Shown piece after piece: positions 4,082 to 55,646 of a stretch of 64,000 nt of DNA. This stretch comes from Eubacteriales bacterium (GTDB lineage: Bacteria > Bacillota > Clostridia > Oscillospirales > CAG-382): the NCBI GenBank assembly GCA_045595785.1, contig JAZOBE010000048.1, positions 6,009 through 70,008 on the forward strand. The letters run 5' to 3'. Each line of letters begins with the position of its first letter. Position 1 is the stretch's first letter. A program made the position numbers and the translations under genes. Under the pieces are notes generated by a model. It was not told the DNA's origin, searched no databases, and saw only the letters and a list, made by a program, of their open reading frames with translations.

Positions 4082-4143
4082 GTGGGGTGTCTTTTTTCGG
4101 GGTCCCCGCAAATGCCACCGGCATTTGTGGGGTGTCTTTTTTT
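4081..4143 (+). repeat. Family-A palindromic unit (1.5 copies)
   Basis: tgtggggtgtctttttt + cggggtccccgcaaatgccaccggcatttgtggggtgtcttttttt. Confidence 0.85.
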
Positions 4144-5824: not shown

Positions 5825-6163
5825 CACAAAGCCACCGGAGCGAAAGTAACGTCCCCAAAGTGAGCGATGGTAAAACAAAGCAGAAGGCGGAAATTTCGAG
5901 CGTGATGTCCGCCCCAAAAACGCATAGCGTTTCTGGGGGACCCCGAGTAGTAATCTACGGCCAGCGAAGTAAAAACGCAAAAATAAAAGAAATCTGTTTA
6001 CAGATTTCTTCCTAAAAACACAAAACAAAAAAGCGAGAGATAAGCTTTGGTCTCTCGCTTTTCTTATTACGTTATTAAAACACTTTGCGTTTTTGTTCTG
6101 ATTTTTATCGGGGTCCCCGCAAATGCGACCAGCATTTGTGGGGTGATTTTTTTACCGAGCGAA
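5825..6163 (+). repeat. Composite intergenic element, copy 1
   Basis: Aligns along most of its length with 42256..42600. Order: ~130-nt module with a reversed family-A unit, hairpin GCGAGAGA..TCTCTCGC, atttcttattacgttat, aaacactttgcgt, a forward A unit, then ttttaccgagcg. Confidence 0.7.
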
Positions 6164-6502: not shown

Positions 6503-7746
6503 TACTGCTTATCCTCCTCTACCGAAACGGTAATTTTTTCTGCGTTACCCAAAAGCGCAACGGGCACCACTATATGCTCCATTTCGCCGGGAGCGCAATG
6601 CTCGCGCTTGAAGGATGCCACTACACGGTCTCCGTCACGGACGGTGAGACGCACATTCTTGTACACGTTTCTTACACGGAAGAACATATCCACAGACTTG
6701 CCTGCGTTTTCGGGGCGGATATACTGAGGCACGGTATAAGAAACACCGTCACCGTTGGTAACCTCTATAATCCTGCCGCTTCCCTTGTTGCCGAGAGCAT
6801 AAAGCGCGGCGGCTTTGCCTGCACGCTCGCTCTCTGCAGAAACGTAATCCACCAGGTCGTGTACGTGAACAACGTTGCCGCAGGCGAAGATACCTTCTGC
6901 CAGCGTTTCCATATTCTCATATACGAAAGCACCGTTTGTACGGCGGTCAATGGGAATACCCGCGCCGCGGGTAAGCTCGTTTTCGGGGATAAGTCCCACG
7001 GAAAGAAGCACGGTATCGCACTCAATATCAAACTCGGTACCGGGAATGGGCTTACGGTCAGGCCCCACCTTGGCGATGGTAACACCCTCTACCCTATTCT
7101 TACCGCGGATATCCGTAATGGTGTGGGAAAGATAAAGAGGGATATCAAAATCGTTAAGACACTGAACGATGTTTCTGGTAAGTCCGCCCGAGTAAGGCAT
7201 AAGCTCAACGCAGGCGTGTACCTTTGCGCCCTCAAGAGTCATACGGCGCGCCATAATAAGACCGATATCGCCGGAGCCCAGAATTACCGCATTTTTACCT
7301 ACCATATATCCTTCGATATTAAGGTATCTCTGTGCCGCGCCTGCGGTGTAAACACCTGCAGGTCTGTCACCGGGAATGGAGATGGCGCCTCTGGTACGCT
7401 CTCTGCATCCCATGGCAAGGACAATGGCGCCGCCGCTTATTTCAAGATAACCCTGCTCGCGGCTAACAGCGCGTACCACACGGTCTGTGGTGACCTCAAG
7501 AACCATAGTATCTGTCAAAACCTCAATACCATCAAGATTTTCTATAAATCTGGAAGCGTATTCGGGGCCTGCCAGCTCCTCCTTGAAGCGGTGGAGACCG
7601 AAGCCGTTGTGAATGCACTGGTTAAGGATACCGCCCAGGCAGGTATCGCGCTCGATAATAAGAATATCCTTTGCGCCGTTTTCACGGGCGCTGATTGCCG
7701 CGGCAAGACCTGCGGGGCCGCCGCCGATGACAATTACTTCTCTCAT
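6502..7746 (-). CDS. NAD(P)/FAD-dependent oxidoreductase (pyridine nucleotide-disulfide family)
   Basis: VIVIGGGPAGLAAA and a second GSGDIG dinucleotide motif. Start moved to the ATG at 7746, which forms an ATGA overlap with the upstream stop. Confidence 0.8.
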   Translation of the reverse strand: MREVIVIGGGPAGLAAAISARENGAKDILIIERDTCLGGILNQCIHNGFGLHRFKEELAGPEYASRFIENLDGIEVLTDTMVLEVTTDRVVRAVSREQGYLEISGGAIVLAMGCRERTRGAISIPGDRPAGVYTAGAAQRYLNIEGYMVGKNAVILGSGDIGLIMARRMTLEGAKVHACVELMPYSGGLTRNIVQCLNDFDIPLYLSHTITDIRGKNRVEGVTIAKVGPDRKPIPGTEFDIECDTVLLSVGLIPENELTRGAGIPIDRRTNGAFVYENMETLAEGIFACGNVVHVHDLVDYVSAESERAGKAAALYALGNKGSGRIIEVTNGDGVSYTVPQYIRPENAGKSVDMFFRVRNVYKNVRLTVRDGDRVVASFKREHCAPGEMEHIVVPVALLGNAEKITVSVEEDKQ

Positions 7747-9155
7747 AACGCACCTCCCGAAAGAACGGTACTTCCCGATTTGTCTTTGCATATCTCCTCA
7801 CGGGGAATGCCGGTATATTTATGGATGAGCTCAAGCACTCTGGGAGCGCAGAATCCGCCCTGACATCTGCCCATACCTGCGCCGACACGGCGCTTGACAC
7901 CGTCAATGCTTACGGGAGGAATGGGGGTTTTGAAGGTAGCGGTTATCTCACCCTCGGTTATAGTTTCGCAACGGCAAACCACTCTGCCGTATGCGGGATC
8001 TTCTTTGATAACGGCGTTCTTTTCCTCGGGGGACAACTCCTTAAAGCGGATGACCTTGCGTGTATCCACCGCATTTTCCTTTTTGGTAAGAGTGAGTCCG
8101 TCCTTCTCAAGCAATTCGCAAACGTACTCGCCGATGGCAGGTGCGGATGCAAGACCGGGGGACTTTATGCCCGCCAGAGAAAGGAAGCCTTTTTTAACAA
8201 AACGAATGAGAAAATCTTCGTTATTGGTGTTTGCACGCATACCTGCGAAATTACGGATGTTTGCGGAAAGATTAAGCGCAGGCACGCTTTTTGCCGCAGC
8301 GGTACGCACGAATGCGAGTCCGTCAGCGGTGGTGGAAACGTCAGTCTTATCATCGCATCCCTCTGCGTTGGGTCCGACGATAATGTTTCCGTGAACGGTG
8401 GGAGAAACAAGCACGCCCTTACCGTCCTTATTGGGGCATTGGAACACGACTGTGTTTACTATGCCGAAAGCAGATTTGTCCAGCAGGTAATACTCACCCT
8501 TGGAGGGCTTGAGAATAAAATCCGGCTCAGCCACAAGAGCCTCAATATCGGTACAGTTGACGCCTGCGGCGGCAACGATATACTTTGCTTTGTATTCACC
8601 CTTTTGGGTAACTACGGTGTTCTCGTCCTTAATATCGGTAACACCCTCGGAAAGATGCAATTCCAATCCGTTTTCCACCGCCACGGTGGCAAAAGCGAGG
8701 GCGTATTCCCAAGGAGAGATAACCCCTGCGGTGGGTGCGTAAAGTGCGGTGGTAACGGTATCTGCAAGGTTAGGCTCAATAGCCTTTATCTCCTCCTTGC
8801 CAAGAATCTTAAGACCGGGTACTCCGTTTTGGATACCGCGCTCATACAGCTTCTTTACGGTTTCGTCATCCTCCTCGCCAAAGGCACATACCAAAGAGCC
8901 GGTCTCCTTATAAGGCACGTCCAGCTTTTTGCATATCTCCTTTGCCAGCGCATTGCCGCGCACGTTGAGACGGGCGGTAAGTGAGCCGGGGACCGGGTCA
9001 TACCCTGCGTGGATGATGGCAGAGTTTGCTTTGGTTGTACCGGTGGCAATATCGTTTTCCTTTTCGAAAAGCGCCACCTTAAGGTCATATTTTGTGAGAT
9101 AGTATGCGGCGGCACAGCCGATAACGCCGCCTCCGATAATTATAACGTCATACAT
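7743..9155 (-). CDS. FAD-dependent oxidoreductase, GlpA/glycerol-3-phosphate dehydrogenase-like with a BFD-like [2Fe-2S] C-terminus
   Basis: DVIIIGGGVIGCAAA. C-terminal Cys pattern C-R-C-E..CQGGFC. ATG at 9155 is preceded by AGGTGA. Confidence 0.8.
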   Translation of the reverse strand: MYDVIIIGGGVIGCAAAYYLTKYDLKVALFEKENDIATGTTKANSAIIHAGYDPVPGSLTARLNVRGNALAKEICKKLDVPYKETGSLVCAFGEEDDETVKKLYERGIQNGVPGLKILGKEEIKAIEPNLADTVTTALYAPTAGVISPWEYALAFATVAVENGLELHLSEGVTDIKDENTVVTQKGEYKAKYIVAAAGVNCTDIEALVAEPDFILKPSKGEYYLLDKSAFGIVNTVVFQCPNKDGKGVLVSPTVHGNIIVGPNAEGCDDKTDVSTTADGLAFVRTAAAKSVPALNLSANIRNFAGMRANTNNEDFLIRFVKKGFLSLAGIKSPGLASAPAIGEYVCELLEKDGLTLTKKENAVDTRKVIRFKELSPEEKNAVIKEDPAYGRVVCRCETITEGEITATFKTPIPPVSIDGVKRRVGAGMGRCQGGFCAPRVLELIHKYTGIPREEICKDKSGSTVLSGGAL

Positions 9156-9262: not shown

Positions 9263-10576
9263 TTACTTCTTCTTTTTAGCAACAACTACAACTACAACAA
9301 CGATAGCTACTACTGCAACAACAGCAACTACGATGCCTACGATAAGGCCGGTGTTGGACTTTTCTTCCTTGTCGCCGGTAGAAGGAGCCTTGGACTCGTC
9401 TTCAGACTTGTCGTCTTCTGCGGGAACAGATTCATCCTTGGGCTCTTCGGAGGATTCATCTTCAACGGGCTCAGAGGATTCATCCTCGGGCTGAGAAGGT
9501 TCATCGGGAGTAGCAACGGGAACAGCGTAGTAAACTACTGCGCCGGTCTCAAAGGTCTGTTCATCAAAGTTGTATCCTGCGAAGGTTACGATGTCGCCTG
9601 CAACGAGAGCTGCAAGAGCGTCTCTGTTTGCGGCTGCGTCAGCGCTCTCACCGTGAACTGCGAGTGCGATGTCGCCTTCAGCTACGTCAGCAAAAGCAAA
9701 CTCATAGTCACCGTCTACACCCTTAACCTCTACTACGGAGTACTCACCCTCAACCTCGGTAGGTCTGAGAAGTACGCATGCGGACCATGCTACGTTGTAT
9801 GCGGAAAGGTTGGTAGGATCGGTGATGATGGTGTTGGAGTCGGTAACGATGGACTCGTTGAAGGGCACGTGCTTGATGTACTTTGCGCCTGCGGGAATCT
9901 CAACGATAGGCTCGATATCATCGATATTTACGGATTCTTCCTGGCTTACTTCTTCGTAATCGTCGTCGCCCTCTTCAGACTGAAGACCTGCGCCAACTTC
10001 GGTAAGACCTATCCATTCCCAGGAAACCTTATCCCAGCCCTGGCCGTTGGGACCCATGCTGAAGCAGATGGAAACGTACTTTGCATCTACAGCAGCGTTA
10101 AGACGGATAACAGTTTCAAGCTGGAAGGAAGGGTCGGCTACATTTACGATTTCGCCTTCCATGGTATAAACATCCTCGTGGAAAGCGTTACCATCTGCGG
10201 AAGTACCGATGATGAGAGAGTTTTCGTGGGGAAGACCGATCATTGCGTTAGCATATACGTACCAGTTGATATATACGGTATCGATGCTCTGAAGAGAATC
10301 AAGCTCAAAAACGATGGTAACTTCGGTAAGATCTTCGGAAGTGCAGTTCTTGTTCTGAATAAGAACTATGCCCTTCTTGTTGAAGTCGTTTGCAGCGGCA
10401 TCAGTTTCAGAAAGAATGGTGCCGTCATACAGAAGCTCAAGCTTATCGGATGCGCGAGGTGCTACGTTATCGCCCTTGATCTCAAGATTAACAACAGTTG
10501 CTTTTGCATCTGCAGGGATAGCAAAAAGCGCCACTACAAGAGTAAGGACAATGATAACACTTAAAAGTTTTTTCAT
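9263..10576 (-). CDS. Surface protein: signal peptide, discoidin/CBM-like N-domain, acidic S/E/D/P linker, C-terminal TM + KKKK
   Basis: 437-aa ORF, tandem paralog of 10717..12060. Confidence 0.75.
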   Translation of the reverse strand: MKKLLSVIIVLTLVVALFAIPADAKATVVNLEIKGDNVAPRASDKLELLYDGTILSETDAAANDFNKKGIVLIQNKNCTSEDLTEVTIVFELDSLQSIDTVYINWYVYANAMIGLPHENSLIIGTSADGNAFHEDVYTMEGEIVNVADPSFQLETVIRLNAAVDAKYVSICFSMGPNGQGWDKVSWEWIGLTEVGAGLQSEEGDDDYEEVSQEESVNIDDIEPIVEIPAGAKYIKHVPFNESIVTDSNTIITDPTNLSAYNVAWSACVLLRPTEVEGEYSVVEVKGVDGDYEFAFADVAEGDIALAVHGESADAAANRDALAALVAGDIVTFAGYNFDEQTFETGAVVYYAVPVATPDEPSQPEDESSEPVEDESSEEPKDESVPAEDDKSEDESKAPSTGDKEEKSNTGLIVGIVVAVVAVVAIVVVVVVVAKKKK

Positions 10577-10716: not shown

Positions 10717-12060
10717 TTATTTCTTCTTTTTGGCAACAACTACAACTACAACAACGATAGCTGCTACTGCAACAACGGCAACTGCGATGCCTACGATAAG
10801 ACCGGTGTTGGACTTTTCTTCCTTGTCGCCGGCAGAAGGAGCTTTGGACTCGTCCTCGGACTTGTCATCCTCTGCGGGAACAGATTCATCCTTAGGCTCT
10901 TCGGAGGACTCATCGTCCTTGGGCTCTTCGGAGGACTCATCGTCTGCGGGAGTGGAAACCTCATCCTCGGAAACGTCGACGTCGGGAGTAGCGGTGTTGT
11001 CTACAAAGTAAACTACTGCGCCTCTCTCAAAGGACTGCTCCTCAAAGTTATAGCCTGCAAAGGTAACGGTATCGCCCTCAACGAGAGCGTTAAGAGCAAG
11101 TCTGTTTGCCTTGGTGCCGTCAGTATCGTCATCACCGTGAACGGAAAGAACGATATCACCCTCTGCTGCGTCTGCAAACAGGAAGGTATCGTCACCGTTC
11201 ATCCACTGAACCGCAACTACAGTGTACTGACCCTCGGTCTCAGCAGGTCTGAGAAGTGCGCAAGAGGTCCACTTTACGTTGTAGTCCTGCATGGTAGCGG
11301 GATCGGTAATGATGGTGTAAGAACCGGTGGTGATAGACTTGTTGAAGGTTGCGTGCTTAAGACCTACGGAACCCTCGGGAATCTCAACGATAGGCTCGAT
11401 CTGGTCAAGAGGAGTGTTGTCTTCGCTTACTTCATCGTAACCGCCGAGAACCTCTTCAACCTGAAGTCCTGCGCCAACTTCGGTAAAGCCTACCCATTCC
11501 CACATGGGGCAGTACCAGCCGTCCTGACCGTGAGGGCCATACTCAAAGGAAACGGAAACATACTTTGCCTTTACGGTCTGACCGAGTCTGATAACAGTCT
11601 CAAGCTGGAAGGAGGAGTTGGGGTCGGTCTCACCCTCAAAATCATAAGCAGCGATCTCGGTATAAACGTCGCCATCCTGAGAATAACCGATGATAAGGTT
11701 ATTGTTGTGAGGCAAACCGATAATTGCGTTGTGATATACGTACCAGGTGATGTAAACCGAGTCGATATCCTGAAGGGTATCAAGCTCAAAATAAAGGGTT
11801 GCAACGGTGTTGTTTTCTGCGTCCATCATATTGGTATTCTGAACGAGAACTATGCCTTCCTTATCGAAGTTGTTTGCGGTAGCATTATCCTCGGAAAGGA
11901 TCTTGTTATCACAAAGAAGATTAACGTCTGCGCCTGCGCGAAGCTTAACGTTATCACCCTCAAACCAAACCTTTGTTACAGTTGCCTTAGCGTCTGCAGG
12001 AATGATAAGAAGTGCAACGACAAGAGAAAGAATGATAAGAACACTTAACAGTTTTTTCAT
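10717..12060 (-). CDS. Surface protein, paralog of 9263..10576
   Basis: 447 aa with the same architecture. The 3' ~200 nt are nearly identical to the paralog. Confidence 0.75.
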   Translation of the reverse strand: MKKLLSVLIILSLVVALLIIPADAKATVTKVWFEGDNVKLRAGADVNLLCDNKILSEDNATANNFDKEGIVLVQNTNMMDAENNTVATLYFELDTLQDIDSVYITWYVYHNAIIGLPHNNNLIIGYSQDGDVYTEIAAYDFEGETDPNSSFQLETVIRLGQTVKAKYVSVSFEYGPHGQDGWYCPMWEWVGFTEVGAGLQVEEVLGGYDEVSEDNTPLDQIEPIVEIPEGSVGLKHATFNKSITTGSYTIITDPATMQDYNVKWTSCALLRPAETEGQYTVVAVQWMNGDDTFLFADAAEGDIVLSVHGDDDTDGTKANRLALNALVEGDTVTFAGYNFEEQSFERGAVVYFVDNTATPDVDVSEDEVSTPADDESSEEPKDDESSEEPKDESVPAEDDKSEDESKAPSAGDKEEKSNTGLIVGIAVAVVAVAAIVVVVVVVAKKKK

Positions 12061-42255: not shown

Positions 42256-42600
42256 TAACAGCCAATCAAAGTAATATCCTGAAGTAAGCGATGGTAAAAA
42301 GCTGCAGAAAAGGTCTTTTACGAGCGTGATGTCCACCCCAAAAACGCATAGCGTTTCTGGGGACCCCGAGTAGTAATCTACGGCCAGCGAAGTAAAAACG
42401 TAAAATAAAAATACGAGAGATACACTATGATCTCTCGCATTTCTTATTACGTTATAAACACTTTGCGTCAAACACTTTGCGTCTGTGGGGTGATTCTTAT
42501 CGGGGTCCCCTCAAATGCGACCGGCATTTGTGGGGTGATTTTTATCGGGGTCCCCTCAAATGCGACCGGCATTTGTGGGGTGATTTTTTTACCGAGCGCC
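42256..42600 (+). repeat. Composite intergenic element, copy 2
   Basis: Collinear with 5825..6163. Contains one reversed A unit (42335-42370) and 2.5 forward 45-nt A units (42484-42590), and ends in ttttaccgagcg. Confidence 0.75.
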
Positions 42601-44253
42601 CAGCATTGAGGTTGCCGCTTTTATCACGTCTTCTCCCGGATCAATTCCGCCCATAATACGGGCAAGCTCTTTTATTCTGCCGTCCTTTGACAAGGGCTTG
42701 ACGTGAGTTTCGGTTCTGCCGAAGGATACGGTTTTTGAAATGAGCAGATGGGTTTTTGCAAGGGAGGCGATCTGTGCCGAATGGGTAACGCATATTACCT
42801 GCTTATCCCCTTCTGCCAGCGAACGGAGACGGAGACCGATACGTGAGCTGGTGGCGCCGGAAATACCCGTGTCCACCTCGTCAAATATCATTGTTCCGAT
42901 ATCCTCTGCCTTGGCAAGAACGCTCTTTACCGCCAGCATAATACGCGCGCATTCACCGCCGGAGGCTATCTTTGCAAGGGGACGGGGCTCCTCGCCTGCG
43001 TTGGCGGATATAAGAAACCGCGCAATATCCGTGCCCCCATCGGAAAGCGGTGTTTTTACAAACTCGGTAACGAAGGTTACACCCGGCATATCAAGAGACG
43101 AAAGTATCTCTTTTATTTGCTTTTCCATGCTCCGCGCCGCGTTAACACGGGTGGAGTATAATTTTTCTGCCTTTGACACAGCGTCCTTTTCGGCGGCGGC
43201 AAGCTCTTTCTTAAGCTCCTCACGCCTTTCGTCGCTGTTATCGATAGACGCAAGTTCTTTTTCGGTCTCCTCGGTAAGAGAGCACAGTCCGCTTTCGTCG
43301 GTGCGGTACTTTCTGCAAAGAGAAGAAATCAGAGAAAGTCTTGATTCTATCTCGTCAAGTGCGCGCTGAGGGTCACCCTCGGGGTCCTCGGTGTAAGCGG
43401 TAACGGAATCTGCAATATCCTCAAGCTCAAACCGTATATTCTCAAGACGTGAGTACAATTCCTCTGCTTCGGGAAGATAATCCGCCAGAGTTTTCAGCCC
43501 GTCCGACGCTTCGGAAACGAGGGCGGAAGCAGATTCGTCCTTTCCGTACAAAGCGTAATACGCCTTGTTTGCGGAGGTAAATATCTTCTCACGGTTAATA
43601 AGCATATTCCGCTTTGCGGTAAGCGCTTCGGTCTCGCCCAAGGTTATCTTGGCACGGCGAAGCTCCTTTAAGCGGTAAGTAAGAAAATCCTTTTTCTCCT
43701 CTCGGTCAGCGGCGTCGCTTTCAAGGGAGTTAAGCTCCTTGCGGAGAGAAAGGTAATTTTTATATGCTTTTGCATATTCTTCCTTTTCCCCATCGTTGCC
43801 TGCGTACAGATCAAGAAGACGGGGATGCAAGGTCTCGTCTGCAAGACGAAGTGTGTCCTGCTGACCGTGTATATCCAGCAAATGTGCGCTTATTTCCCTT
43901 AATTTACCTACGGGAGTAACTCTGCCGTTAATACGGGAAACGCTTCGTCCGTCTGCGCCGATACGGCGGGACAGGAACAAATACCCCTCCTCATCGGGAA
44001 AAACGTCCATTCCCTCAAGGGTTTTTAACGTCTCGTCAGAAAACGCACCGAAAACACCCTCCACCTCGGCGAACTCTTCTCCCGTACGGATAATGCTTTT
44101 ATCACTCCGCGCGCCGCAAAGCAGGGCTATTGAATCTATGATAATACTTTTGCCCGCGCCGGTTTCGCCGGTGAATACCGTAAGACCTTCGGAAAAGTCA
44201 ATATCCAGCGTGCGAATGAGGGCGACGGAACGGATATGTAACGAAAAAAGCAT
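42589..44253 (-). CDS. recN: DNA repair protein RecN
   Basis: N-terminal Walker A GETGAGKS, coiled-coil middle, C-terminal signature and Walker B (IFDEVDTGISG). Confidence 0.95.
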   Translation of the reverse strand: MLFSLHIRSVALIRTLDIDFSEGLTVFTGETGAGKSIIIDSIALLCGARSDKSIIRTGEEFAEVEGVFGAFSDETLKTLEGMDVFPDEEGYLFLSRRIGADGRSVSRINGRVTPVGKLREISAHLLDIHGQQDTLRLADETLHPRLLDLYAGNDGEKEEYAKAYKNYLSLRKELNSLESDAADREEKKDFLTYRLKELRRAKITLGETEALTAKRNMLINREKIFTSANKAYYALYGKDESASALVSEASDGLKTLADYLPEAEELYSRLENIRFELEDIADSVTAYTEDPEGDPQRALDEIESRLSLISSLCRKYRTDESGLCSLTEETEKELASIDNSDERREELKKELAAAEKDAVSKAEKLYSTRVNAARSMEKQIKEILSSLDMPGVTFVTEFVKTPLSDGGTDIARFLISANAGEEPRPLAKIASGGECARIMLAVKSVLAKAEDIGTMIFDEVDTGISGATSSRIGLRLRSLAEGDKQVICVTHSAQIASLAKTHLLISKTVSFGRTETHVKPLSKDGRIKELARIMGGIDPGEDVIKAATSMLGAR

Positions 44254-44258
44254 AAAAA

Positions 44259-44717
44259 TCAGTTAGCTCCGATCTGCTCCTTTAATTTAACGCAGATGCG
44301 GTGAGCCTCTTCCTCGCTTTTGGTAATTAAAACTATAGTATCGTCTCCTGCAATAGAGCCGAGAATGCCTTCGAAATTCATAGCGTCGATAGTAATGCAA
44401 GCGGCAGACGCCATTGCCATATAGGTACGGAGCACTACCAGATTCATTGCCTGGTCCACGCTCTTTACGGTATCTGCAAGTATCTTTGCAAACTTGGTTG
44501 CGATATGCTCGGAGGTGGGCAGAGTAGCCGCAACGTAACGGTAACCGCCCTTTCCGTTAGAGGTCTTTACTATTTTTAATTCTCTTATATCACGGGAAAC
44601 GGTTGCCTGAGTACATTCAAAGCCGCTGGCGCGGAGAAGAAGTAAAAGCTCCTCCTGAGTGTCAACGTCACGGTTTTTGATAAGCTCCATTATTTTAGTC
44701 TGTCTTTTTATTTTCAT
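44259..44717 (-). CDS. argR: Arginine repressor
   Basis: N-terminal winged helix (QEELLLLLRASGFECTQATVSRDIREL) and C-terminal GTIAGDDT-like motif. Start at MKIKRQ. Confidence 0.9.
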   Translation of the reverse strand: MKIKRQTKIMELIKNRDVDTQEELLLLLRASGFECTQATVSRDIRELKIVKTSNGKGGYRYVAATLPTSEHIATKFAKILADTVKSVDQAMNLVVLRTYMAMASAACITIDAMNFEGILGSIAGDDTIVLITKSEEEAHRICVKLKEQIGAN

Positions 44718-44731
44718 TGTGCGGCTTCCTT

Positions 44732-45520
44732 TCAAACGTTAAATTTATTGTGGACTACCGAGTAGAAATTTCTCTTTTTAATGCGGAGTATGCGTGTGTG
44801 CCGCTCGCTCTTGCGGATTATTGCGTAATCTCCCGGGGCAAACTCAACAGGAGGCGCGGAATCCACGGTGATACAGGCGTTTTCTCCGCCTCTCACCTTT
44901 GCGGCAACCATAAGCACGCTGTCCGACGGGAACACCAACGCTCTGGTTGAAGCGGTGGGATGGGGACAAACGGGTGTAACGGTTATGGATTCCAGTCTGG
45001 GATGTATAATAGGTCCGCCTGCGGAAAGGGAATATGCGGTGCTTCCCGTAGGGGTGGCGAAAATAAGACCGTCTGCCGAATAGTCCGAAACGTGGACTCC
45101 GTCGCAATACAGGTTTATATCCGCAATACGTGGTGATGCGCCACGGGAGAACAGCACCTCGTTAAGCACTAAAAACTCCTCCTTGCTTCCGTCGTTTTTA
45201 CAAAGGGTAACGGCAAGAAGCATAAGGTCGTCTATACTGAAATCCTCGGTTTTTAGCGCCTCAAGCAGGTGGGTCTCCTCCGGCTCGATATCGTTTAAGT
45301 ATCCCAGCGTTCCGCAGTTTATGCCGACGATGGGTATATCTGCTCTTGCAGCTATGGATGCGGCGCGGAGCACGGTGCCGTCTCCGCCGATAGATATGAT
45401 AACCTCAGGATTTTTATCGGTAACAGTAATTCCAAATCCTGCCAGCGCGTCCTTTACCTTCATGGCGGTATACTGGGCTTCCGGCTTAAGAGTATTCACT
45501 ATAAGCTGTGCGCGTTTCAT
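44732..45520 (-). CDS. nadK: NAD kinase
   Basis: GGDGT and NxGxLGFL-type (INCGTLGYL) motifs, TPTGSTAYSLSAGGP. Confidence 0.9.
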   Translation of the reverse strand: MKRAQLIVNTLKPEAQYTAMKVKDALAGFGITVTDKNPEVIISIGGDGTVLRAASIAARADIPIVGINCGTLGYLNDIEPEETHLLEALKTEDFSIDDLMLLAVTLCKNDGSKEEFLVLNEVLFSRGASPRIADINLYCDGVHVSDYSADGLIFATPTGSTAYSLSAGGPIIHPRLESITVTPVCPHPTASTRALVFPSDSVLMVAAKVRGGENACITVDSAPPVEFAPGDYAIIRKSERHTRILRIKKRNFYSVVHNKFNV

Positions 45521-45526
45521 CCGGTG

Positions 45527-46252
45527 TTATCTCCTTTCAAACAGCGCAAGGTATTCGGTGTTTCCGTCTCCCCCGAGAATGGGCGAAACGGCGGTCTTTA
45601 CAAGATAAAGCCCGTTTTCCGAAGCGCATTTTTGTATTTTATCAAGTATGGAAGCGAAAATCCTTCCGTCTTTGTCCTTAACTATTCCGCCTTTGCCGAT
45701 ATTTTCTCTGCCTGCCTCAAACTGGGGCTTTATAAGCGAGATAAAATATCCCTTTTCCATAACGCGGCTTACCGCAGGATAAATAAGGGTTTGAGAAATA
45801 AAGGAAAGATCGGTGGTAACGATATCCGGCGTATAGGGCAGGTCATCCGGAAAAATATCACGGGCGTTTACCCCTTCCATAACGGTGACTCTGTCGTCGC
45901 CCCTAAGCTTTGGGTCAAGCTGGTCTCTGCCCACGTCAAGTGCGATAACACGGCAGGCACCGCGCTGAAGCAGACAATCCGTAAATCCGCCGGTGGACGC
46001 GCCAAGGTCAAGTGCGCTCATTCCCTTTACGTCGATACCGAAAACAGTTAACGCTTCCTCTAATTTTCTTCCTGCACGGGACACGAATTTATCGGGGTCG
46101 GAAACGAAAACCTCCTCGTCTCCCTTAACCTCGGCACCTGCCTTTTTCACGGAAGTGCCGTTAACAAAAACCCTGCCGGAATCAATATATTCTTTGGCTT
46201 TGCTTCTGCTGGGAGCAAAGCCCTTTTCTACTAAAAGCAGGTCTATTCGCAT
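45527..46252 (-). CDS. tlyA: TlyA-family rRNA 2'-O-methyltransferase
   Basis: S4 domain N-terminus (RIDLLLVEKGFAPSRSKAKE) and SAM motif DLGASTGGFTD. Start at 46252. Confidence 0.9.
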   Translation of the reverse strand: MRIDLLLVEKGFAPSRSKAKEYIDSGRVFVNGTSVKKAGAEVKGDEEVFVSDPDKFVSRAGRKLEEALTVFGIDVKGMSALDLGASTGGFTDCLLQRGACRVIALDVGRDQLDPKLRGDDRVTVMEGVNARDIFPDDLPYTPDIVTTDLSFISQTLIYPAVSRVMEKGYFISLIKPQFEAGRENIGKGGIVKDKDGRIFASILDKIQKCASENGLYLVKTAVSPILGGDGNTEYLALFERR

Positions 46253-48072
46253 AGCTTTTGCGCCAACGAGGTGGCGTCTATACCGGCAAGAGCACGGAGC
46301 GTGGAAACGTCGCCGTGAGGCAAGAATCCCTCTGCGCCGCAAACCGTAATTCTTGCACGGTGCTGTCTCTCCGCACACATGGCGGCGATACTCTCACCGA
46401 TACCGCCCGTCTTCATACCCTCTTCTGCGGTTACGATAACTCTGGCGTTTTTAATAAGCGGATATATATCGGGCAAGGGCTTTACCTTAATAAGCCTTAT
46501 AAGACGGACGTTGGTGCCGTTTGCATGTGCCATCTGGCACGCGCGGTAGGCTTGCTCGGTCTCACTGCCCGTGGTAATAAGCACGTTATAAATAAATTCG
46601 CTGGGTCCGAAATCGGTAACGGAATATTCCATATCCGAAACGGCTCTGCTTTGAGGCGCAACTCCTCTGGGATAGCGTATTACCGAGGGAGCGTTAAGGT
46701 CAAGCGCCTGAGTGAGACACAGCTTCATCTCCGCCTCGGTATAAGGAGACCATACCGTAAGATTGGGTATGGAATTAAGATAAGAAAGGTCGAACATACC
46801 GTGGTGGGTAGGTCCGTCTGCGCCTACAAGACCCGCTCTGTCCAAAGCGATAACGACGGGCAGGGATTGAAGTGCAACGTCGTGTATAAGCTGGTCGTAG
46901 GCTCTTTGTGAAAAGGTGGAATACACCGCAAAAACAGGCTTCATTCCCCCCGCCGCAAGTCCTGCGGCGAAGGTCATTGCGTGTTCTTCTGCGATGCCCA
47001 CGTCAAAAAATCTGTTGGGGAAGTTTTTCGCAAAGGAGGTAAGCCCCGTGCCCGATTCCATTGCGGCAGTGATGGCGCAAATACGCCCGTCTATACCTGC
47101 AAGACGGGTAAGCGTCTCACCAAAAATATCCGAATAGGTCTTTCCGCCTGCTTTCGTCTCACCGCTTTCTCTGTCAAAGGGAGAAACGCCGTGGAAAACC
47201 GCAGGGTCCTTCTCTGCAGGAGCATAACCGTAGCCCTTTTTGGTGCAGACGTGGACTACCGAGCACTTTCCGTCAGCCCTGGCTTCACGAAGCACGTCCT
47301 CAATGGCGGAAACGTTGTGTCCGTCCAGGGGGCCGAAGTAATGCATACCCATCTGCTCAAAAATATTTTCATGCACCAAATGCCGTTTTCCCCAATCCTT
47401 AAATGCACGGGCGGCGGAAACCAGCCATTTTCCTATAAACGGTACTGCGGAAAACACCTTTTCCACAAACCGCTTGAATGCGAAATATTTTTTACTTACC
47501 CTTATACGGGACAGCAGCCTTGAGGTTGCGCCCACGTTAGGGGAGATGGACATACCGTTATCGTTAAGAATAATTATAAGATTGTCATAGGACGCACAGT
47601 TGTTAAGCGCCTCATACGCCATACCGCCGGTAAGCGCCCCGTCACCTATAACGGCGATGGTGGTGCTTTGTCTGCCGCACAGCTTGTCCGAAGCGGCAAA
47701 GCCTGCCGCCGCAGAGATGGAGGTGGAGGAATGACCTGCACCAAAGGGGTCGCACTCGCTTTCCGACCGCTTCTGGAATCCGGAAATGCCGCCGTATTTG
47801 CGGAGAGTGCTCATATACTGACGTCTGCCCGTAAGCATTTTATGTACGTAGCTTTGATGGCTTACGTCAAAAAGTATCCTGTCCCGAGGGCAATCGAACA
47901 CACGGTGGAGCGCGATGGTAAGCTCAACTACCCCCAGATTAGAGGCGAGATGGCCGCCGTTTTCTGAGGTTACGTTGACAAGCTCGGAGCGTATTTCCGC
48001 CGCGAGAATGCGTAATTGTTCGGTTGTAAGATTTTTAATATCCCCGGGAGAGGAAACGGTTTCAAGTATCAT
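46243..48072 (-). CDS. dxs: 1-deoxy-D-xylulose-5-phosphate synthase
   Basis: GGHLASNLG, TPP motif IGDGALTGGMAYEALN, 609 aa. Confidence 0.95.
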   Translation of the reverse strand: MILETVSSPGDIKNLTTEQLRILAAEIRSELVNVTSENGGHLASNLGVVELTIALHRVFDCPRDRILFDVSHQSYVHKMLTGRRQYMSTLRKYGGISGFQKRSESECDPFGAGHSSTSISAAAGFAASDKLCGRQSTTIAVIGDGALTGGMAYEALNNCASYDNLIIILNDNGMSISPNVGATSRLLSRIRVSKKYFAFKRFVEKVFSAVPFIGKWLVSAARAFKDWGKRHLVHENIFEQMGMHYFGPLDGHNVSAIEDVLREARADGKCSVVHVCTKKGYGYAPAEKDPAVFHGVSPFDRESGETKAGGKTYSDIFGETLTRLAGIDGRICAITAAMESGTGLTSFAKNFPNRFFDVGIAEEHAMTFAAGLAAGGMKPVFAVYSTFSQRAYDQLIHDVALQSLPVVIALDRAGLVGADGPTHHGMFDLSYLNSIPNLTVWSPYTEAEMKLCLTQALDLNAPSVIRYPRGVAPQSRAVSDMEYSVTDFGPSEFIYNVLITTGSETEQAYRACQMAHANGTNVRLIRLIKVKPLPDIYPLIKNARVIVTAEEGMKTGGIGESIAAMCAERQHRARITVCGAEGFLPHGDVSTLRALAGIDATSLAQKLCE

Positions 48073-48087
48073 TAAAAAAATCTTTCT

Positions 48088-48651
48088 TTATTTCTTTTTG
48101 AATATGCAAAGCACGCGGGCACACATAAGGGTTATCTGTCTGCTTTTATCCATTCCCACCTTTTTGCCCAACGCCTTTCCCCCAACGGTTATGGAGGAGA
48201 CAAGCGCCGTAAGAGACAGGGTGAGCCAGAAGGATAATTCCGTATCAAGCTTTGAGAACAGCACCACGGCTATCGTCGCCGCAGAGGCGCCGGATACGAC
48301 ACCGCAAATATCTCCCACTATATCGTTGCAAAATGAGGAGACCTTTTCTGCGTTGGCGATAAGCCACACCGCCTTCTTGCCAACCGGGTCCTTCTTCGCC
48401 GCCATTGCATTAAACGCCGCCATATCTGCGGTGGTTACGGCAAGACCTATCATATCGAAAATAATACCCAGTAAAATAAATATAAGCAGCACCACAAGTG
48501 CTGCCCAAACGGGAAGATCCTCAAGAGCCTCGCCTGACAGCAAAGACAGCAAGGCGGTCATCAAAAAGCTGAATACAAATGCAAAGGTTATCCAGATACG
48601 GCGCGCACGCCGCTTGGCACGTTCTTTTGAATTGTCTTTTTCGTTTTTCAT
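48088..48651 (-). CDS. oapA: OLE-associated protein A candidate (four-TM membrane protein)
   Basis: 187 aa with about 4 TM. Lies between a long structured ORF-free region and dxs, which is the position described for oapA. Confidence 0.65.
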   Translation of the reverse strand: MKNEKDNSKERAKRRARRIWITFAFVFSFLMTALLSLLSGEALEDLPVWAALVVLLIFILLGIIFDMIGLAVTTADMAAFNAMAAKKDPVGKKAVWLIANAEKVSSFCNDIVGDICGVVSGASAATIAVVLFSKLDTELSFWLTLSLTALVSSITVGGKALGKKVGMDKSRQITLMCARVLCIFKKK

Positions 48652-48664
48652 ATTGTTCCTTTTA

Positions 48665-49310
48665 TTTGGGACGCGCTCCTAATGGCTGTTTAATTAATGG
48701 CGACACGGTACGTAGACCTTGCGGCTTACGGTCAAGTAGGATTTCCCCACGGTCTCCTTCTCGTCGCCGATGAAGGGGTTCCCCATTAAAGACCGAGGCG
48801 GGGCATTGCTGCTTCCGCGACTTGATTGCCTATGAGTCCGCACTGTAATCCGCACCGTGCCCGTGCGTTTGTAATTTGCCGCGACGACAGTCTAGGCGTT
48901 TTCCGCCATAGCACAAAACATTTTCTTATCTTCTTTTGCAGACATGATTTCAAACGCGATTTATTCGAGGCTCGGTAGCTAATCTCCCCCCGACATGAAC
49001 GTTATCCGCCATGACCCACTCAAAGCCGGCTACATCTATCCACAGCATCTGTAATGGTCGTACCGCGTGATAGGTCTAATCTTAATCACGTAACCCCTTT
49101 CTCCAAACAAAAGTCCGCCACGTAGAAAAAGCCTCAAAGGAAAGTGGGGTAGCCGCCCCATGCCATTGGGGTGCGCCCACAGTCCATTCTCCCAGCATCC
49201 ACCCTGAACTGGGCGTACAAAGCAAACACCAGGAGCTTCATCGATTTGCCGTTTGACGTATTTTTAGGCACGCCTTCAAAAACGCCGTGCTAACTAGAAT
49301 ACTGCGCCAT
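48665..49310 (-). ncRNA. ole: Candidate OLE (ornate, large, extremophilic) RNA
   Basis: About 645 nt with no credible ORF on either strand. GC-rich with many local hairpins, including a GCAA tetraloop stem. A promoter lies upstream. Co-oriented and contiguous with oapA-dxs-tlyA-nadK-argR-recN. Confidence 0.65.
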
Positions 49311-49319
49311 CGCATATTC

Positions 49320-49347
49320 ATTATATCACATTTTTGCATAAATTCAA
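49320..49347 (-). promoter_or_regulatory. Candidate sigma-A promoter driving the OLE-like RNA
   Basis: Minus strand reads TTGAAT, 16 nt, TGaTATAAT. Confidence 0.5.
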
Positions 49348-49484: not shown

Positions 49485-49702
49485 AAAAAGCGAGAGATAA
49501 ACTATAATCTCTCGCATTTCTAATTACGTCATTATTCTTTTTGCGTTTTTGGTCTGCTTTTTATCGGGGTCCCCGCAAATCGAAGATTTGTGGGGTGATT
49601 TTTATCGGGGTCCCCGCAAATGCAACGGCATTTGTGGGGTGATTTTTATCGGGGTCCCCGCAAATGCGACCGGCATTTGTGGGGTGATTCTTTTACCGAG
49701 CG
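49485..49702 (+). repeat. Composite intergenic element, truncated copy 3 with three family-A units
   Basis: Hairpin gcgagagataaactataatctctcgc, then atttctaattacgtcat, then units of 41, 44 and ~47 nt with loops cgaagat / gcaacggc / gcgaccggc, then ttttaccgagcg. Confidence 0.8.
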
Positions 49703-49703
49703 A

Positions 49704-50435
49704 CTACCGAGCGGAAAGTATCCTCTCTACTTCGGCTAAATCTTCTTCCGTATTCACTCCCGCAAGCTCGGTCTCATCGGGAAGGATATACGCCTGCACC
49801 TTGCCGCCGGATGCGATCATATGCTTGGGCACGTCGGTGAGATAATATTCGCCGGTGACGGGGCTGGGTGTGATACGGGCAAGGGACTCAAACAGCTTTA
49901 CCGAATCAAACATATATATTCCGCCGTTAAGCTCGGGAATTTTTTTCTGCTCGTCGGTGGCGTCCTTGTGCTCAACTATTCCTGCCACGTCCCCCGAAAC
50001 GGTGCGTATGATATGACCGAAGGGAGGTATATTCCCCTTTGCCACAAAGGTGAGAATGGTGCAGTCTGCGCCCGTTTCCTTGTGATACTCCGCCAGCGCG
50101 CGGACGCTTTCCCTGCGGAGCAGAGGCATATCGCCGTTGATGACGAGAATGGGTCCGTCATAGCCCTTGAAGCAATGGGCGGCGCACATAACCGCATGGC
50201 CCGTGCCCTTTTGCTCCTCCTGAAAAGCGTAGGTGTATTCGGGATACGCATCCATGACCACCTGCTTTTGATAGCCAACAAGTATAACTTTATCTTCTTT
50301 TTTAACTATATCCGTATAATCAAGTACGTATCCGAGAAGGGGAACGCCCTTTGCTTTGCGCATTACCTTGGGTATTTGAGTAATTTCACTGCCCAGACGC
50401 TTTCCTTTTCCGCCTGCGAGAATAAGTGCTTTCAT
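49704..50435 (-). CDS. Sugar-phosphate nucleotidyltransferase (GlmU N-terminal-like)
   Basis: MKALILAGGKGKRLG start and VINGDMPL motif. Start moved to 50435. Confidence 0.75.
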   Translation of the reverse strand: MKALILAGGKGKRLGSEITQIPKVMRKAKGVPLLGYVLDYTDIVKKEDKVILVGYQKQVVMDAYPEYTYAFQEEQKGTGHAVMCAAHCFKGYDGPILVINGDMPLLRRESVRALAEYHKETGADCTILTFVAKGNIPPFGHIIRTVSGDVAGIVEHKDATDEQKKIPELNGGIYMFDSVKLFESLARITPSPVTGEYYLTDVPKHMIASGGKVQAYILPDETELAGVNTEEDLAEVERILSAR

Positions 50436-50523
50436 TTTTGGCAAAAACCCTTTCATAGACATATATTCAATAACAGTATATATTGGTTTTTGAACAAAGT
50501 CAACACATTCGGAGGGATTTTTA

Positions 50524-51546
50524 ATGGCAGAATATTTTGCCGGTGTCAACACCGAAAAAGGATTTATGGGGTTTCCGAAGGAATATTTCGGTTCTCTTTC
50601 AAGGCTGTATATTATCAAAGGCACGGCGGGAAGCGGAAAATCCACGCTGATGAAGCGGATTGCAGACCAATGCGAAAAGCTGGGGATTGAAACGGACAGG
50701 GTCTACTGCTCGTCCGACCCGAATTCCCTTGACGGGGTGATACTTCCCCGTAACGGCACTGCCGTTGCAGACGGCACCGCCCCTCATCTGCTTGAGCCCA
50801 TAACCCCCGTAGCAAAAGAGATACTTGTGGACACGGGCAGGTTTATGGACGAAAAAAAGCTTGATAAAGAAGGGATAATTTATTACTCCCGAAAAAAGAA
50901 GGAATATTATTCCCGTGCATATTCCTTTATACTATGCGGAGTGGAGGCAAGCCGTGTGTGCAGTGATATCGTGTTTGCCGCCATGGACAAAGCAAAGCTT
51001 TATTCCTATGGAGAACGGTTTTTCAAAAGGCATATTGAAAGCAAGGTCTTTTCAAAGGCGGTGCATACGCGGATAGCCGCCGCGTTTACGGGAAGAGGGT
51101 TACGGGTGCTTGACCCGTTCCCCCAAGCAGAGCGTGTGTTTACTCTGCGGGGCGGACGGGGAAACGAGCATATATTTATTAAGCAGTTATACGATATTGC
51201 GTTGGATGCAGGTGAGGAAGCATGTGTTTCCCCCGATGCAACCGATTCCCAAAGGCTTAACGGTATATATTTCCCCATTCGGAGAGTATACGTTACCTCC
51301 CTGCCCACGGAAAGAGGAACCGAAATTAATATGGCGCGTTTTTTTGTTACCGCCGAATACACAAAGCAAAAGCAGGAGATAAAGGAAATTAGCGAAACAG
51401 CGAAAAAAGCCTATTCTCTGGCGGAAAAGCAGTTGTTTTCTGCGGCGGCGTGCCACGGAGAGCTGGAAAAGCGGTACGTTTCCACAATGGATTTTGAGCC
51501 CTTGGACCAAGAATACCGCCGTATTATTAAAGGAATGACGGAATAA
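50524..51546 (+). CDS. Uncharacterised P-loop ATPase
   Basis: Walker A GTAGSGKST, 340 aa, RBS GGAGGG. Confidence 0.6.
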   Translation: MAEYFAGVNTEKGFMGFPKEYFGSLSRLYIIKGTAGSGKSTLMKRIADQCEKLGIETDRVYCSSDPNSLDGVILPRNGTAVADGTAPHLLEPITPVAKEILVDTGRFMDEKKLDKEGIIYYSRKKKEYYSRAYSFILCGVEASRVCSDIVFAAMDKAKLYSYGERFFKRHIESKVFSKAVHTRIAAAFTGRGLRVLDPFPQAERVFTLRGGRGNEHIFIKQLYDIALDAGEEACVSPDATDSQRLNGIYFPIRRVYVTSLPTERGTEINMARFFVTAEYTKQKQEIKEISETAKKAYSLAEKQLFSAAACHGELEKRYVSTMDFEPLDQEYRRIIKGMTE

Positions 51547-51595
51547 AACGGATACTTTCCGCATATCTGTGTACAAAAAGGAGATGTGCGTAAAA

Positions 51596-52021
51596 ATGAA
51601 AAACGAAAAAGTATCCTTTGTTTCCCCTATACTTTGCGGACTTATCGGGTCGCTGGCGACGGTGGCGGCAACCCTGCTGGGGTCGGTTATATGTGCGGCG
51701 GCGTTTGTGTCGGTTGCCGACCCCAATTCATTCGTGCTTATATGCGCGTGTATTGCTATGTTTTTGGGCGGTGCGGCAGGCGGAATATTATCCGTAAAGC
51801 TGGGCAACGCATTTATCAGCGCAACCGTTTCCGCCGTAGCGTCGCTGTTGATTCTGGCGGCGGTATCCATGTTTTTCCCTGCGTCCGACGGCGTGCTGTC
51901 CCGCATACTTCCCCCGGTCATACTTACGCTTTCCACACTGGTGTGGGGATACGTTTCACTGGGCAGAAAGCCAACTCGGGCAGACACGTTGAAAAAAGCG
52001 GTAAAAAAGGCGAAAAAATAA
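51596..52021 (+). CDS. Small multi-pass membrane protein
   Basis: Hydrophobic ORF. Start set after AAGGAGA. Confidence 0.5.
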   Translation: MKNEKVSFVSPILCGLIGSLATVAATLLGSVICAAAFVSVADPNSFVLICACIAMFLGGAAGGILSVKLGNAFISATVSAVASLLILAAVSMFFPASDGVLSRILPPVILTLSTLVWGYVSLGRKPTRADTLKKAVKKAKK

Positions 52022-55571: not shown

Positions 55572-55646
55572 GGCCTGTTAGTCAAGTGGTCAAGACGTCG
55601 CCCTCTCACGGCGAAGGCAGGGGTTCGACTCCCCTACGGGTCACCA
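55572..55646 (+). tRNA. tRNA-Glu (anticodon CUC), CCA encoded
   Basis: Hand-folded cloverleaf: acceptor GGCCTGT/ACGGGTC, anticodon stem TCGCC/GGCGA with loop CTCTCAC, T-arm AGGGG-TTCGACT-CCCCT. Confidence 0.85.

Follow-up and report, generated by a model that had tools for sequence, protein, structure and literature searches.

OLE (ornate, large, extremophilic) RNA and its membrane protein partner OapA have long been known, with about 2,800 genomic examples catalogued, and the RNA was reportedly first described by Puerta-Fernandez et al. in 2006. The classic gene order around it is ispA-ole-oapA-dxs. The genes of two further partner proteins, the KOW-motif protein OapB and the L7Ae-family kink-turn binder OapC, are normally unlinked from ole, and genomes that carry OLE usually lack mpfA. 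To our knowledge, no biochemical activity has been established for OLE in any species. Here we analyze a window of 64,000 nucleotides (nt), that is, the whole stretch taken from contig JAZOBE010000048.1 of GenBank assembly GCA_045595785.1 (Eubacteriales bacterium). It almost certainly contains a genuine OLE RNA gene of full length, with oapA next to it, at the head of a co-oriented ole-oapA-dxs-tlyA-nadK-argR-recN cluster, in what appears to be an uncultured lineage of Clostridia (Bacillota).

The consensus of the OLE class was updated by Fernando and Breaker in 2024 (PMC11332333). In other bacteria OLE is an abundant, membrane-localized RNA that is cut from a polycistronic transcript (PMC12265935), and, according to the summary of Block et al. 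2011 given in the same paper, OapA binds it cooperatively and is needed for its localization to the membrane. Binding of OapB requires a GNRA loop together with a single-nucleotide bulge (PMC7936274). OapA is set apart from CNNM domains by a DxxxD motif and by the lack of the conserved CNNM proline (PMC11332333), and dxs often adjoins ole and oapA (PMC10898510). The OLE ribonucleoprotein (RNP) and the transporter MpfA have been proposed in the literature to do overlapping jobs.

Identification of the OLE RNA

The Rfam covariance model for OLE (RF01071) matched the minus strand of the window at 49326-48681 over model positions 1 to 616, without truncation, scoring 380.4 bits where the gathering threshold is 50 (E = 3.3e-108). 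The original prediction, made by a model from the letters of the DNA, had called a probable OLE RNA at this place and had suggested this very search on the minus strand, which came out positive. The structured core, about 614 nt long, is bounded by the two strands of the closing helix, of which the 5' one begins at 49310 and the 3' one ends at 48697. When nine related loci were scanned with Rfam, all nine were recognized as OLE, with 356 to 505 bits, so that 380 bits is an ordinary score for this RNA and the window copy falls in the middle of the range of its relatives. The prediction had also cautioned that a diverged copy can be missed, which does not describe this one: it is neither diverged nor hard to find, and any Rfam-based annotation would detect it.

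The interval between 48652 and 49310 had been described as free of any credible open reading frame (ORF) on either strand. The ORFs that overlap it are indeed just 50 to 64 amino acids (aa) long on both strands, with the exception of a spurious 255-aa ORF that runs antisense to oapA and ends inside the interval. The further description of the region as GC-rich holds only weakly, since OLE has 50.5% G+C compared with 48.4% for the window, although it lies 11 points above the adjacent noncoding spacer (39% G+C).

Conservation of the fold

For comparison we used 80 genomic loci encoding homologues of the 187-aa protein downstream of OLE, taken from the GTDB genome matches listed. OLE was located in these loci by nhmmer, and 62 full-length copies (the window and 61 relatives) were aligned with MAFFT. 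The fold was tested on this alignment, with the Rfam structure projected onto the MAFFT columns, to avoid relying on Rfam's own alignment. In the window copy, 154 of the 158 pairs of the RF01071 model are present and 137 of these 154 are standard pairs, while the 17 nonstandard ones cluster in the distal parts of the P7 and P9 arms, which could re-pair locally. Across the 62 sequences, 82.9% of the cells are paired, compared with 41 to 48% when the partners were slid by one to three columns, and compensatory changes were found at 122 of the 154 pairs; the observed values were reached by none of 500 shuffles. Pairing is weak at the tips of P7 and P9, which vary in length and could not be aligned by MAFFT.

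About 130 columns are invariant over all 62 sequences. At the columns with a conservation of 90% or more among the 61 relatives, the window keeps the consensus base in 185 of 195; three of its 10 departures are an alignment shift and two more make up a compensatory change of a C-G into a U-A pair (OLE positions 303/396). With the closest relative, locus L081 (GCA_965321145.1), the RNA shares 89% identity, compared with about 74% for the surrounding operon. Judged from these comparisons, the window copy is subject to the constraint that acts on its relatives.

Four hairpins or pairings had been named in the original prediction as signs of structure, and only one of them, CCCCAAUGGCAUGGGG at 49171-49156, turned out to be a helix of the conserved fold. 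The GGGGcggcuaCCCC hairpin is not in the Rfam consensus and represents an alternative or chance pairing; it and the CCCCAAUGGCAUGGGG helix are mutually exclusive because GGGG is common to both. The CC-GCAA-GG hairpin is also missing from the consensus and is not kept in the relatives, where GG is replaced by GA or AA. The proposed long-range pairing of GGCGAC with GUCGCC would join the loop region of one helix (a GCGA tetraloop) to the 3' strand of another and is likewise no part of the consensus. These two are again alternative or chance pairings, and none of the three is retained in the relatives. The true long-range closing helix is formed by AUGGCG (49310-49305) and CGCCAU (48702-48697).

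This and the other helices at the ends were derived here from the sequence, as the RF01071 model leaves the 5' and 3' ends unpaired. The closing helix is 93.5% paired across the relatives, with compensatory changes at four of its six pairs, and the CAGU/CUAG helices are 100% paired, so that for the closing helix and the helix that bears the invariant CUAG/CUAG palindrome together the range is 93 to 100%, with compensatory changes present. The helices that likely correspond to P3 and P3.1 are 69% and 56% paired and show compensatory changes in all pairs, in a region that MAFFT aligned poorly.

Predicted protein-binding and dimerization elements

The positions of the structural elements are collected in Table 1. 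Those predicted to take part in dimerization are all present, namely, the P4 loop CUAAAAAU, the conserved P5.1 and P6.1 loops (CGCCCAG and AAUGGCAU, respectively), and UAGCUA at the tip of P9. The A-rich loop of P4 is a dimer contact in the published cryo-electron microscopy structures (PMC12265935), and its UAAAA is invariant in the 62 sequences. On the 3' side of the AUCGAU palindrome lies the invariant UGAA of the OapC kink-turn region. Because P7, P8, and P9 are present and P13 has both the bulge and the GNRA loop (the features used as criteria in PMC11332333 and PMC7936274), the copy is of the full-length OLE type. A small hairpin at 48888-48861 is expanded, with 19 nt in a place that takes up 6 nt in the model.

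The tetramers of the P9 loop were read off the alignment; a naive palindrome finder was too unspecific. AGCU is found in the window and its six nearest loci, and GGCC is found in most of the others among the 62 sequences. Switching from one palindrome to another is what a symmetric kissing loop predicts, and it has been reported by Kretsch et al. 2025 (PMC12286853) for GGCC, GAUC, and AGCU, the three tetramers named in the part of that paper drawn on here, in which the AGCU change is already given as covariation evidence for dimerization. The switch seen in the window therefore confirms a known result. Another self-complementary tetramer, GUAC (UGUACA), was found in six loci from metagenome-assembled genomes (MAGs) labelled Bacilli (L067, L037, L057, L079, L028, and L073). 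In five loci (L011, L014, L015, L068, and L078) the P9 arm is strongly shortened and has no palindromic apical loop, resembling the published variant 1; three of them (L011, L015, and L078) still score 356 to 375 bits with Rfam OLE.

OapA and its linkage to OLE

The 187-aa membrane protein encoded directly after the RNA had been predicted to be OapA, and an HMM or BLAST search of it against OapA sequences had been proposed as a check. Its family agrees with this call: the members have a DxxxD motif and a CorB/CNNM-like fold, and of 77 informative loci, 75 have the gene directly 3' of OLE in the same orientation (73 located by nhmmer plus L032 and L075 by inspection), three of the 80 loci being uninformative for having too little upstream DNA. 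In the window, oapA starts 46 nt past the last base of the closing helix (48697). The motif reads D110-I-V-G-D114 and is invariant in 27 aligned homologues, and no proline is found among the invariant columns of these sequences. The N terminus is basic, with nine K or R in residues 1 to 20. Besides CNNM, no other Pfam domain was detected in the protein, neither CBS nor CorC.

The AlphaFold2 model (predicted local distance difference test [pLDDT] score of 80) has long helices at residues 3-43, 48-74, 101-134, and 137-168; hydropathy clearly marks three helices, and the fourth is less hydrophobic. The top fold matches in the PDB are to the archaeal CNNM protein MtCorB (7m1t and 7m1u), with probabilities of 0.98 to 1.0 and TM-scores of 0.42 to 0.56. 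A search of the PDB sequences with a profile of the OapA family gave no match at E <= 1, and the family is therefore tied to CorB by fold comparison only. The family comprises 2,410 matches, of which the best, a cluster representative, is 93% identical, all from uncultured Clostridia; for an identical 187-aa protein there was no record in the assembly index. The best GTDB genome match among those listed is 58% identical at OapA.

The two remaining loci, L069 (1-577) and L003 (1-314), encode OapA homologues with no recognizable OLE in the available upstream DNA (at most 577 nt). L069 has a promoter-like sequence directly before the gene, and L003 has short tandem repeats (CACTATT). These OapA-like genes may have lost their link to ole; alternatively, ole may sit further upstream. 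The gap between OLE and oapA, usually less than 0.4 kb, is enlarged by insertions to about 2.4 kb in L051 (4946-5574 versus 8001) and about 1.8 kb in L044 (120-273 versus 2071). An Oscillospiraceae MAG contig (L054) carries two OLE copies in inverted orientation, at 7170-7826 on the plus strand and 1903-1247 on the minus strand, with identical nhmmer scores; the pair reflects either a true inverted duplication or an artifact of assembly.

Transcription signals and genomic context

The promoter that had been proposed to point into the region, TTGAAT and TGaTATAAT separated by 16 nt, is present, with 10 of 12 matches plus the TG extension. In 51 of the 61 related loci, a -10-like hexamer ends 13 to 25 nt 5' of the conserved CAGUAU (8.8 expected from shuffles), and in 38 loci it is TG extended (0.6 expected). 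Because its position is conserved in the relatives, the ole promoter is probably real, and the related loci indicate that ole in this clade typically has its own extended -10 promoter. Transcription is predicted to start near 49313. No terminator-like site was found between OLE and oapA, and with the oapA ribosome-binding site (RBS) and ATG within about 45 nt, this suggests that the RNA is made as the 5' part of the operon transcript. Upstream, a terminator-like hairpin stands 3' of a nucleotidyltransferase gene and parts that gene from the ole promoter.

Pfam and NCBIfam searches identified the downstream genes as had been read from the sequence, with the membrane protein followed by dxs, tlyA, nadK, argR, and recN. 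The order from ole onward is the majority order, found in 36 of the 54 related loci with enough sequence, and the closest relative L081 also has dxs-tlyA-nadK-argR-recN. The prediction had implied that ispA is missing upstream, which is the case; no ispA or xseA homologue was found in the whole 64-kb window or in L081, and both carry a GlmU-N-like nucleotidyltransferase instead. Among the relatives, a same-strand polyprenyl synthetase (ispA-like) is the commonest upstream neighbor, found in 20 of the 54 loci, including the nearest GTDB representatives.

As for the host, the closest loci among the matches listed come from the guts of yak, roe deer, and other sources, in MAGs that carry the labels Clostridia, Eubacteriales, or Oscillospiraceae, and the bacterium appears to be an uncultured, gut-type member of the Clostridia. 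An exact 26-nt query from the P7 arm had no match in the metagenome contigs of the Joint Genome Institute.

Several other features of the window were noted. A hairpin repeat resembling repetitive extragenic palindromic (REP) sequences is found on the plus strand at 4104-4132, 6115-6143, 42507-42535, 42552-42580, 49571-49595, 49612-49639, and 49656-49684, with tandem copies in the intergenic DNA on either side of the ole-to-recN cluster. Its pattern is CCCC[G/T]CAAATGC...GCATTTGTGGGG followed by TGATTTTTAT; the 29-nt form has five matches compared with 0.02 expected, and two more copies with shorter loops came from the terminator scan, in which each copy also scores as terminator-like on the plus strand. 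The sole other Rfam match in the window is a tRNA gene at 55572-55643 (plus strand, 65.5 bits). Divergent from the nucleotidyltransferase gene, and upstream of it, lies a pair of plus-strand genes encoding a 340-aa P-loop NTPase-like protein with weak STAND/AAA Pfam matches only (50524-51546) and a 150-aa membrane protein with no family match (51569-52021); the same pair occupies the same place in L081. Finally, two adjacent paralogous genes on the minus strand (9263-10576 and 10717-12060) encode proteins of 437 and 447 aa with near-identical, signal-peptide-like N termini (MKKLLSV...PADAKATV).

TABLE 1 Features of the ole-oapA locus and its surroundings (window coordinates; elements of the RNA are predicted)
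Feature	Coordinates	Strand	Remarks
OLE RNA gene	48681..49326	-	Extent of the Rfam RF01071 match
ole promoter, sigma-70 type	49320..49347	-	-35 TTGAAT 49347-49342, 16-nt spacer, extended -10 TGaTATAAT 49328-49320
5' strands of long-range helices	49279..49310	-	Partners 48702-48697, 48895-48888, 48924-48910
CAGU...CUAG with CUAG palindrome	49304-49294	-	Published OapA-site region near P2; partner 48895-48888
AGCAC and CGUUUU, likely P3/P3.1	49291-49279	-	Proposed membrane-spanning stem, 5 + 6 bp; partner 48924-48910
P4 hairpin	49255..49274	-	A-rich loop CUAAAAAU at 49267-49260
AUCGAU palindrome, P4a region	49240..49245	-	Second published OapA-site region (PMC12265935, PMC9723947); predicted here
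P7	49125-49085	-	RF01071 match
P8	49074-49035	-	RF01071 match
P9 long arm	48929..49027	-	Apical self-complementary loop UAGCUA at 48981-48976
P13 hairpin	48798..48818	-	One-nucleotide bulge (A) three bp from GCAA (GNRA) tetraloop 48809-48806; predicted OapB site
Weaker second OapB site	48767-48764	-	GCGA tetraloop; predicted
oapA	48088..48651	-	187-aa membrane protein, about four long helices; RBS AAAGGA 6 nt before ATG
Remainder of cluster	42589..48072	-	Co-oriented with ole-oapA
dxs	48072-46243	-	TIGR00204, 651 bits
tlyA	ORF from 46378, likely start 46252, to 45527	-	TIGR00478, 221 bits
nadK	45520-44732	-	NAD kinase Pfam domain
argR	44735-44259	-	ArgR Pfam domain
recN	44253-42589	-	TIGR00634, 505 bits
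Terminator-like hairpin	49490..49515	-	9-bp stem, then T-run, GCGAGAGAT...ATCTCTCGC TTTTTTGTTT; function inferred from the pattern
Sugar-nucleotidyltransferase, GlmU-N-terminal-like	49704..50645	-	In the usual place of ispA; context, not part of the RNP

Comparison with described OLE loci

The locus shares with described full-length OLE examples the match to the full model, the core of about 614 nt, all major helices, the conserved loops and palindromes, and the P13 bulge with its GNRA loop. The host, like theirs, appears to be one of the Bacillota, oapA lies directly 3' and is followed by dxs, and the neighboring genes serve translation, central metabolism, and DNA repair. Unlike those examples, the window has neither ispA nor xseA upstream, and its RNA differs in the P9 tetramer (AGCU instead of GGCC, a variant already published), the 19-nt hairpin expansion, and a C at 48715 in place of an otherwise invariant U. 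Whereas ole of Halalkalibacterium halodurans sits inside a longer operon that begins upstream, the ole gene in the window has its own promoter and an upstream terminator-like hairpin. In contrast to extremophile OLE hosts, this host resembles a gut anaerobe, which is common for the Clostridia examples. Like the window RNA, the reduced OLE variants 1 and 2 keep the conserved nucleotides of the core and are associated with uncultured gut Bacillota, but their P7, P8, and P9 are short or missing and the OapB site is often lost (PMC11332333), while the window RNA has all of these.

The protein resembles OapA of H. halodurans in being a small membrane protein whose gene directly follows ole, with the DxxxD motif, a basic cytoplasmic N terminus, and about four transmembrane helices. 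The likeness is one of features, not of a sequence alignment, and it extends to the fold search, as CorB (7M1U) is the top PDB match for both (PMC11332333). With MpfA/CorB/CNNM transporters (PF01595), the window OapA shares the fold of the transmembrane domain, through a weak Pfam match at threshold. However, these transporters have a CBS pair and a CorC domain, three helices, and a conserved proline, whereas OapA has none of these domains, four helices, and DxxxD and lacks such a proline.

Alternative interpretations

One could take the region to be merely a cis-acting 5' leader of oapA-dxs, akin to a riboswitch or attenuator, rather than a stable and separate RNA. A promoter immediately upstream would suit such a leader, as would the lack of a terminator before oapA, which makes the region the 5' end of the operon mRNA. 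However, the RNA belongs, as a full-length example, to a class that has been found in other species to be abundant, membrane localized, and processed (PMC12265935), its conserved structure extends over more than 600 nt with predicted protein-binding and dimerization elements, and nothing like an expression platform is evident beside the oapA RBS. One RNA could play both roles; in view of its class and of how far the conserved structure extends, we give a leader that acts purely in cis a very small chance. It would be still less probable, indeed extremely so, that the copy is decaying or reduced, that is, a pseudogene or a variant 1 or 2 without P7/P8 or the OapB site. At the highly conserved columns, the 10 differences of the window (185 of 195 kept) put it in 61st place among the 62 sequences, and 17 of 154 consensus pairs are nonstandard in the Rfam alignment, but half of these differences are accounted for by the alignment shift (three) and the compensatory pair (two), and the nonstandard pairs lie in variable distal arms able to re-pair locally. 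P7, P8, and the long P9 are present, the P13 bulge and GNRA loop are kept, the score of 380 bits is within the 356 to 505 bits of the relatives, oapA is intact, and conservation is higher in the RNA than in the flanking genes (89% versus 74%). The conservation and the full set of arms thus refute a decayed or reduced copy. The protein, in turn, might be an ordinary truncated Mg2+ transporter of the CNNM/MpfA type that lies next to the RNA by chance, as CNNM is its sole Pfam match and the CorB transporter its best fold match. Yet the whole protein is 187 aa long and has neither CBS nor CorC, it has the invariant DxxxD and no invariant proline, both traits of OapA (PMC11332333), and its homologues adjoin OLE in 75 of 77 informative loci. 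A plain transporter fragment, for which we see practically no chance, is refuted by the protein's motifs and domain makeup and by how closely its gene is linked to OLE.

Some observations do weigh against a functional OLE RNP at this locus or against parts of its description. All 61 relatives carry U where the window has C at 48715. The folding energy alone is unremarkable (z = -1.9, with 1 of 20 shuffles folding equally well), and the thermodynamic score was not taken as evidence. The names of the helices come from the text of PMC12265935 and not from a figure, and the published membrane-spanning P3 model is offered as a proposal by its authors. On the protein side, the Pfam CNNM match (residues 54-185) has 28.4 bits, exactly at the cut-off, and the Foldseek E-values are weak (0.02 to 0.5). 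A crude gene map and Pfam searches of 10 small or membrane ORFs revealed no OapB (YbzG), OapC (YbxF), or mpfA-like gene in the 64-kb window, which says little about the whole genome because the OapB and OapC genes are normally unlinked. Every functional step set out below is carried over by homology, from genetic and biochemical work on H. halodurans and from cryo-electron microscopy of OLE RNAs from Clostridium (two species). The OLE identity, the conserved and covarying fold, the presence of every published interaction element, the hallmarks of OapA, and the transcription signals are observed directly, and we retain a genuine full-length ole gene followed by oapA as the reading of this locus.

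Proposed functional model and implications

A model of how the particle might work can be drawn from PMC12265935, PMC12286853, PMC7936274, PMC9723947, and PMC11332333. Transcription from near 49313 would read through ole into oapA and the genes beyond, and the OLE part of about 614 nt would persist as a stable RNA. Two copies would then form a homodimer through the P4, P5.1/P6.1, and P9 contacts, and OapA dimers may bind the CUAG and AUCGAU palindromes that flank P3, with the RNA being held at, and possibly through, the cell membrane. OapB would be recruited at P13 and OapC at the kink-turn. Such a particle may help the cell to cope with excess Mg2+, short-chain alcohols, cold, and poor carbon sources, the probable route being control of OapA, a relative of the CNNM/CorB Mg2+ transporters without cytoplasmic regulatory domains. 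In the most specific idea put forward so far, OapA is a putative Mg2+ transporter, and the RNA would stand in for the CBS and CorC domains that MpfA has and OapA lacks.

A more speculative idea, to which we give a low probability, is that ole has in this lineage been uncoupled from ispA and heads its own promoter-driven unit, flanked on both sides by tandem REP-like hairpin repeats, in which the OLE fold may also regulate oapA, dxs, tlyA, nadK, argR, and recN in cis. This regulation could act through the processing of OLE or through its protein-bound state. Two observations lie behind the idea, the conserved position of the promoter and the missing terminator between ole and oapA. If it is true, a stress-sensing particle would gain a direct route to the regulation of its neighbor genes.

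Nothing at the locus is new in kind, and the local differences are minor and mostly common to the relatives or already published. The class is of real interest, and recent structures suggest that OLE may span the membrane as a dimer. The value of the present copy lies in a correct annotation for an apparently gut-dwelling, uncultured lineage of Clostridia and in an extra data point for full-length OLE, with an intact predicted OapB site, in gut anaerobes that are not extremophiles.

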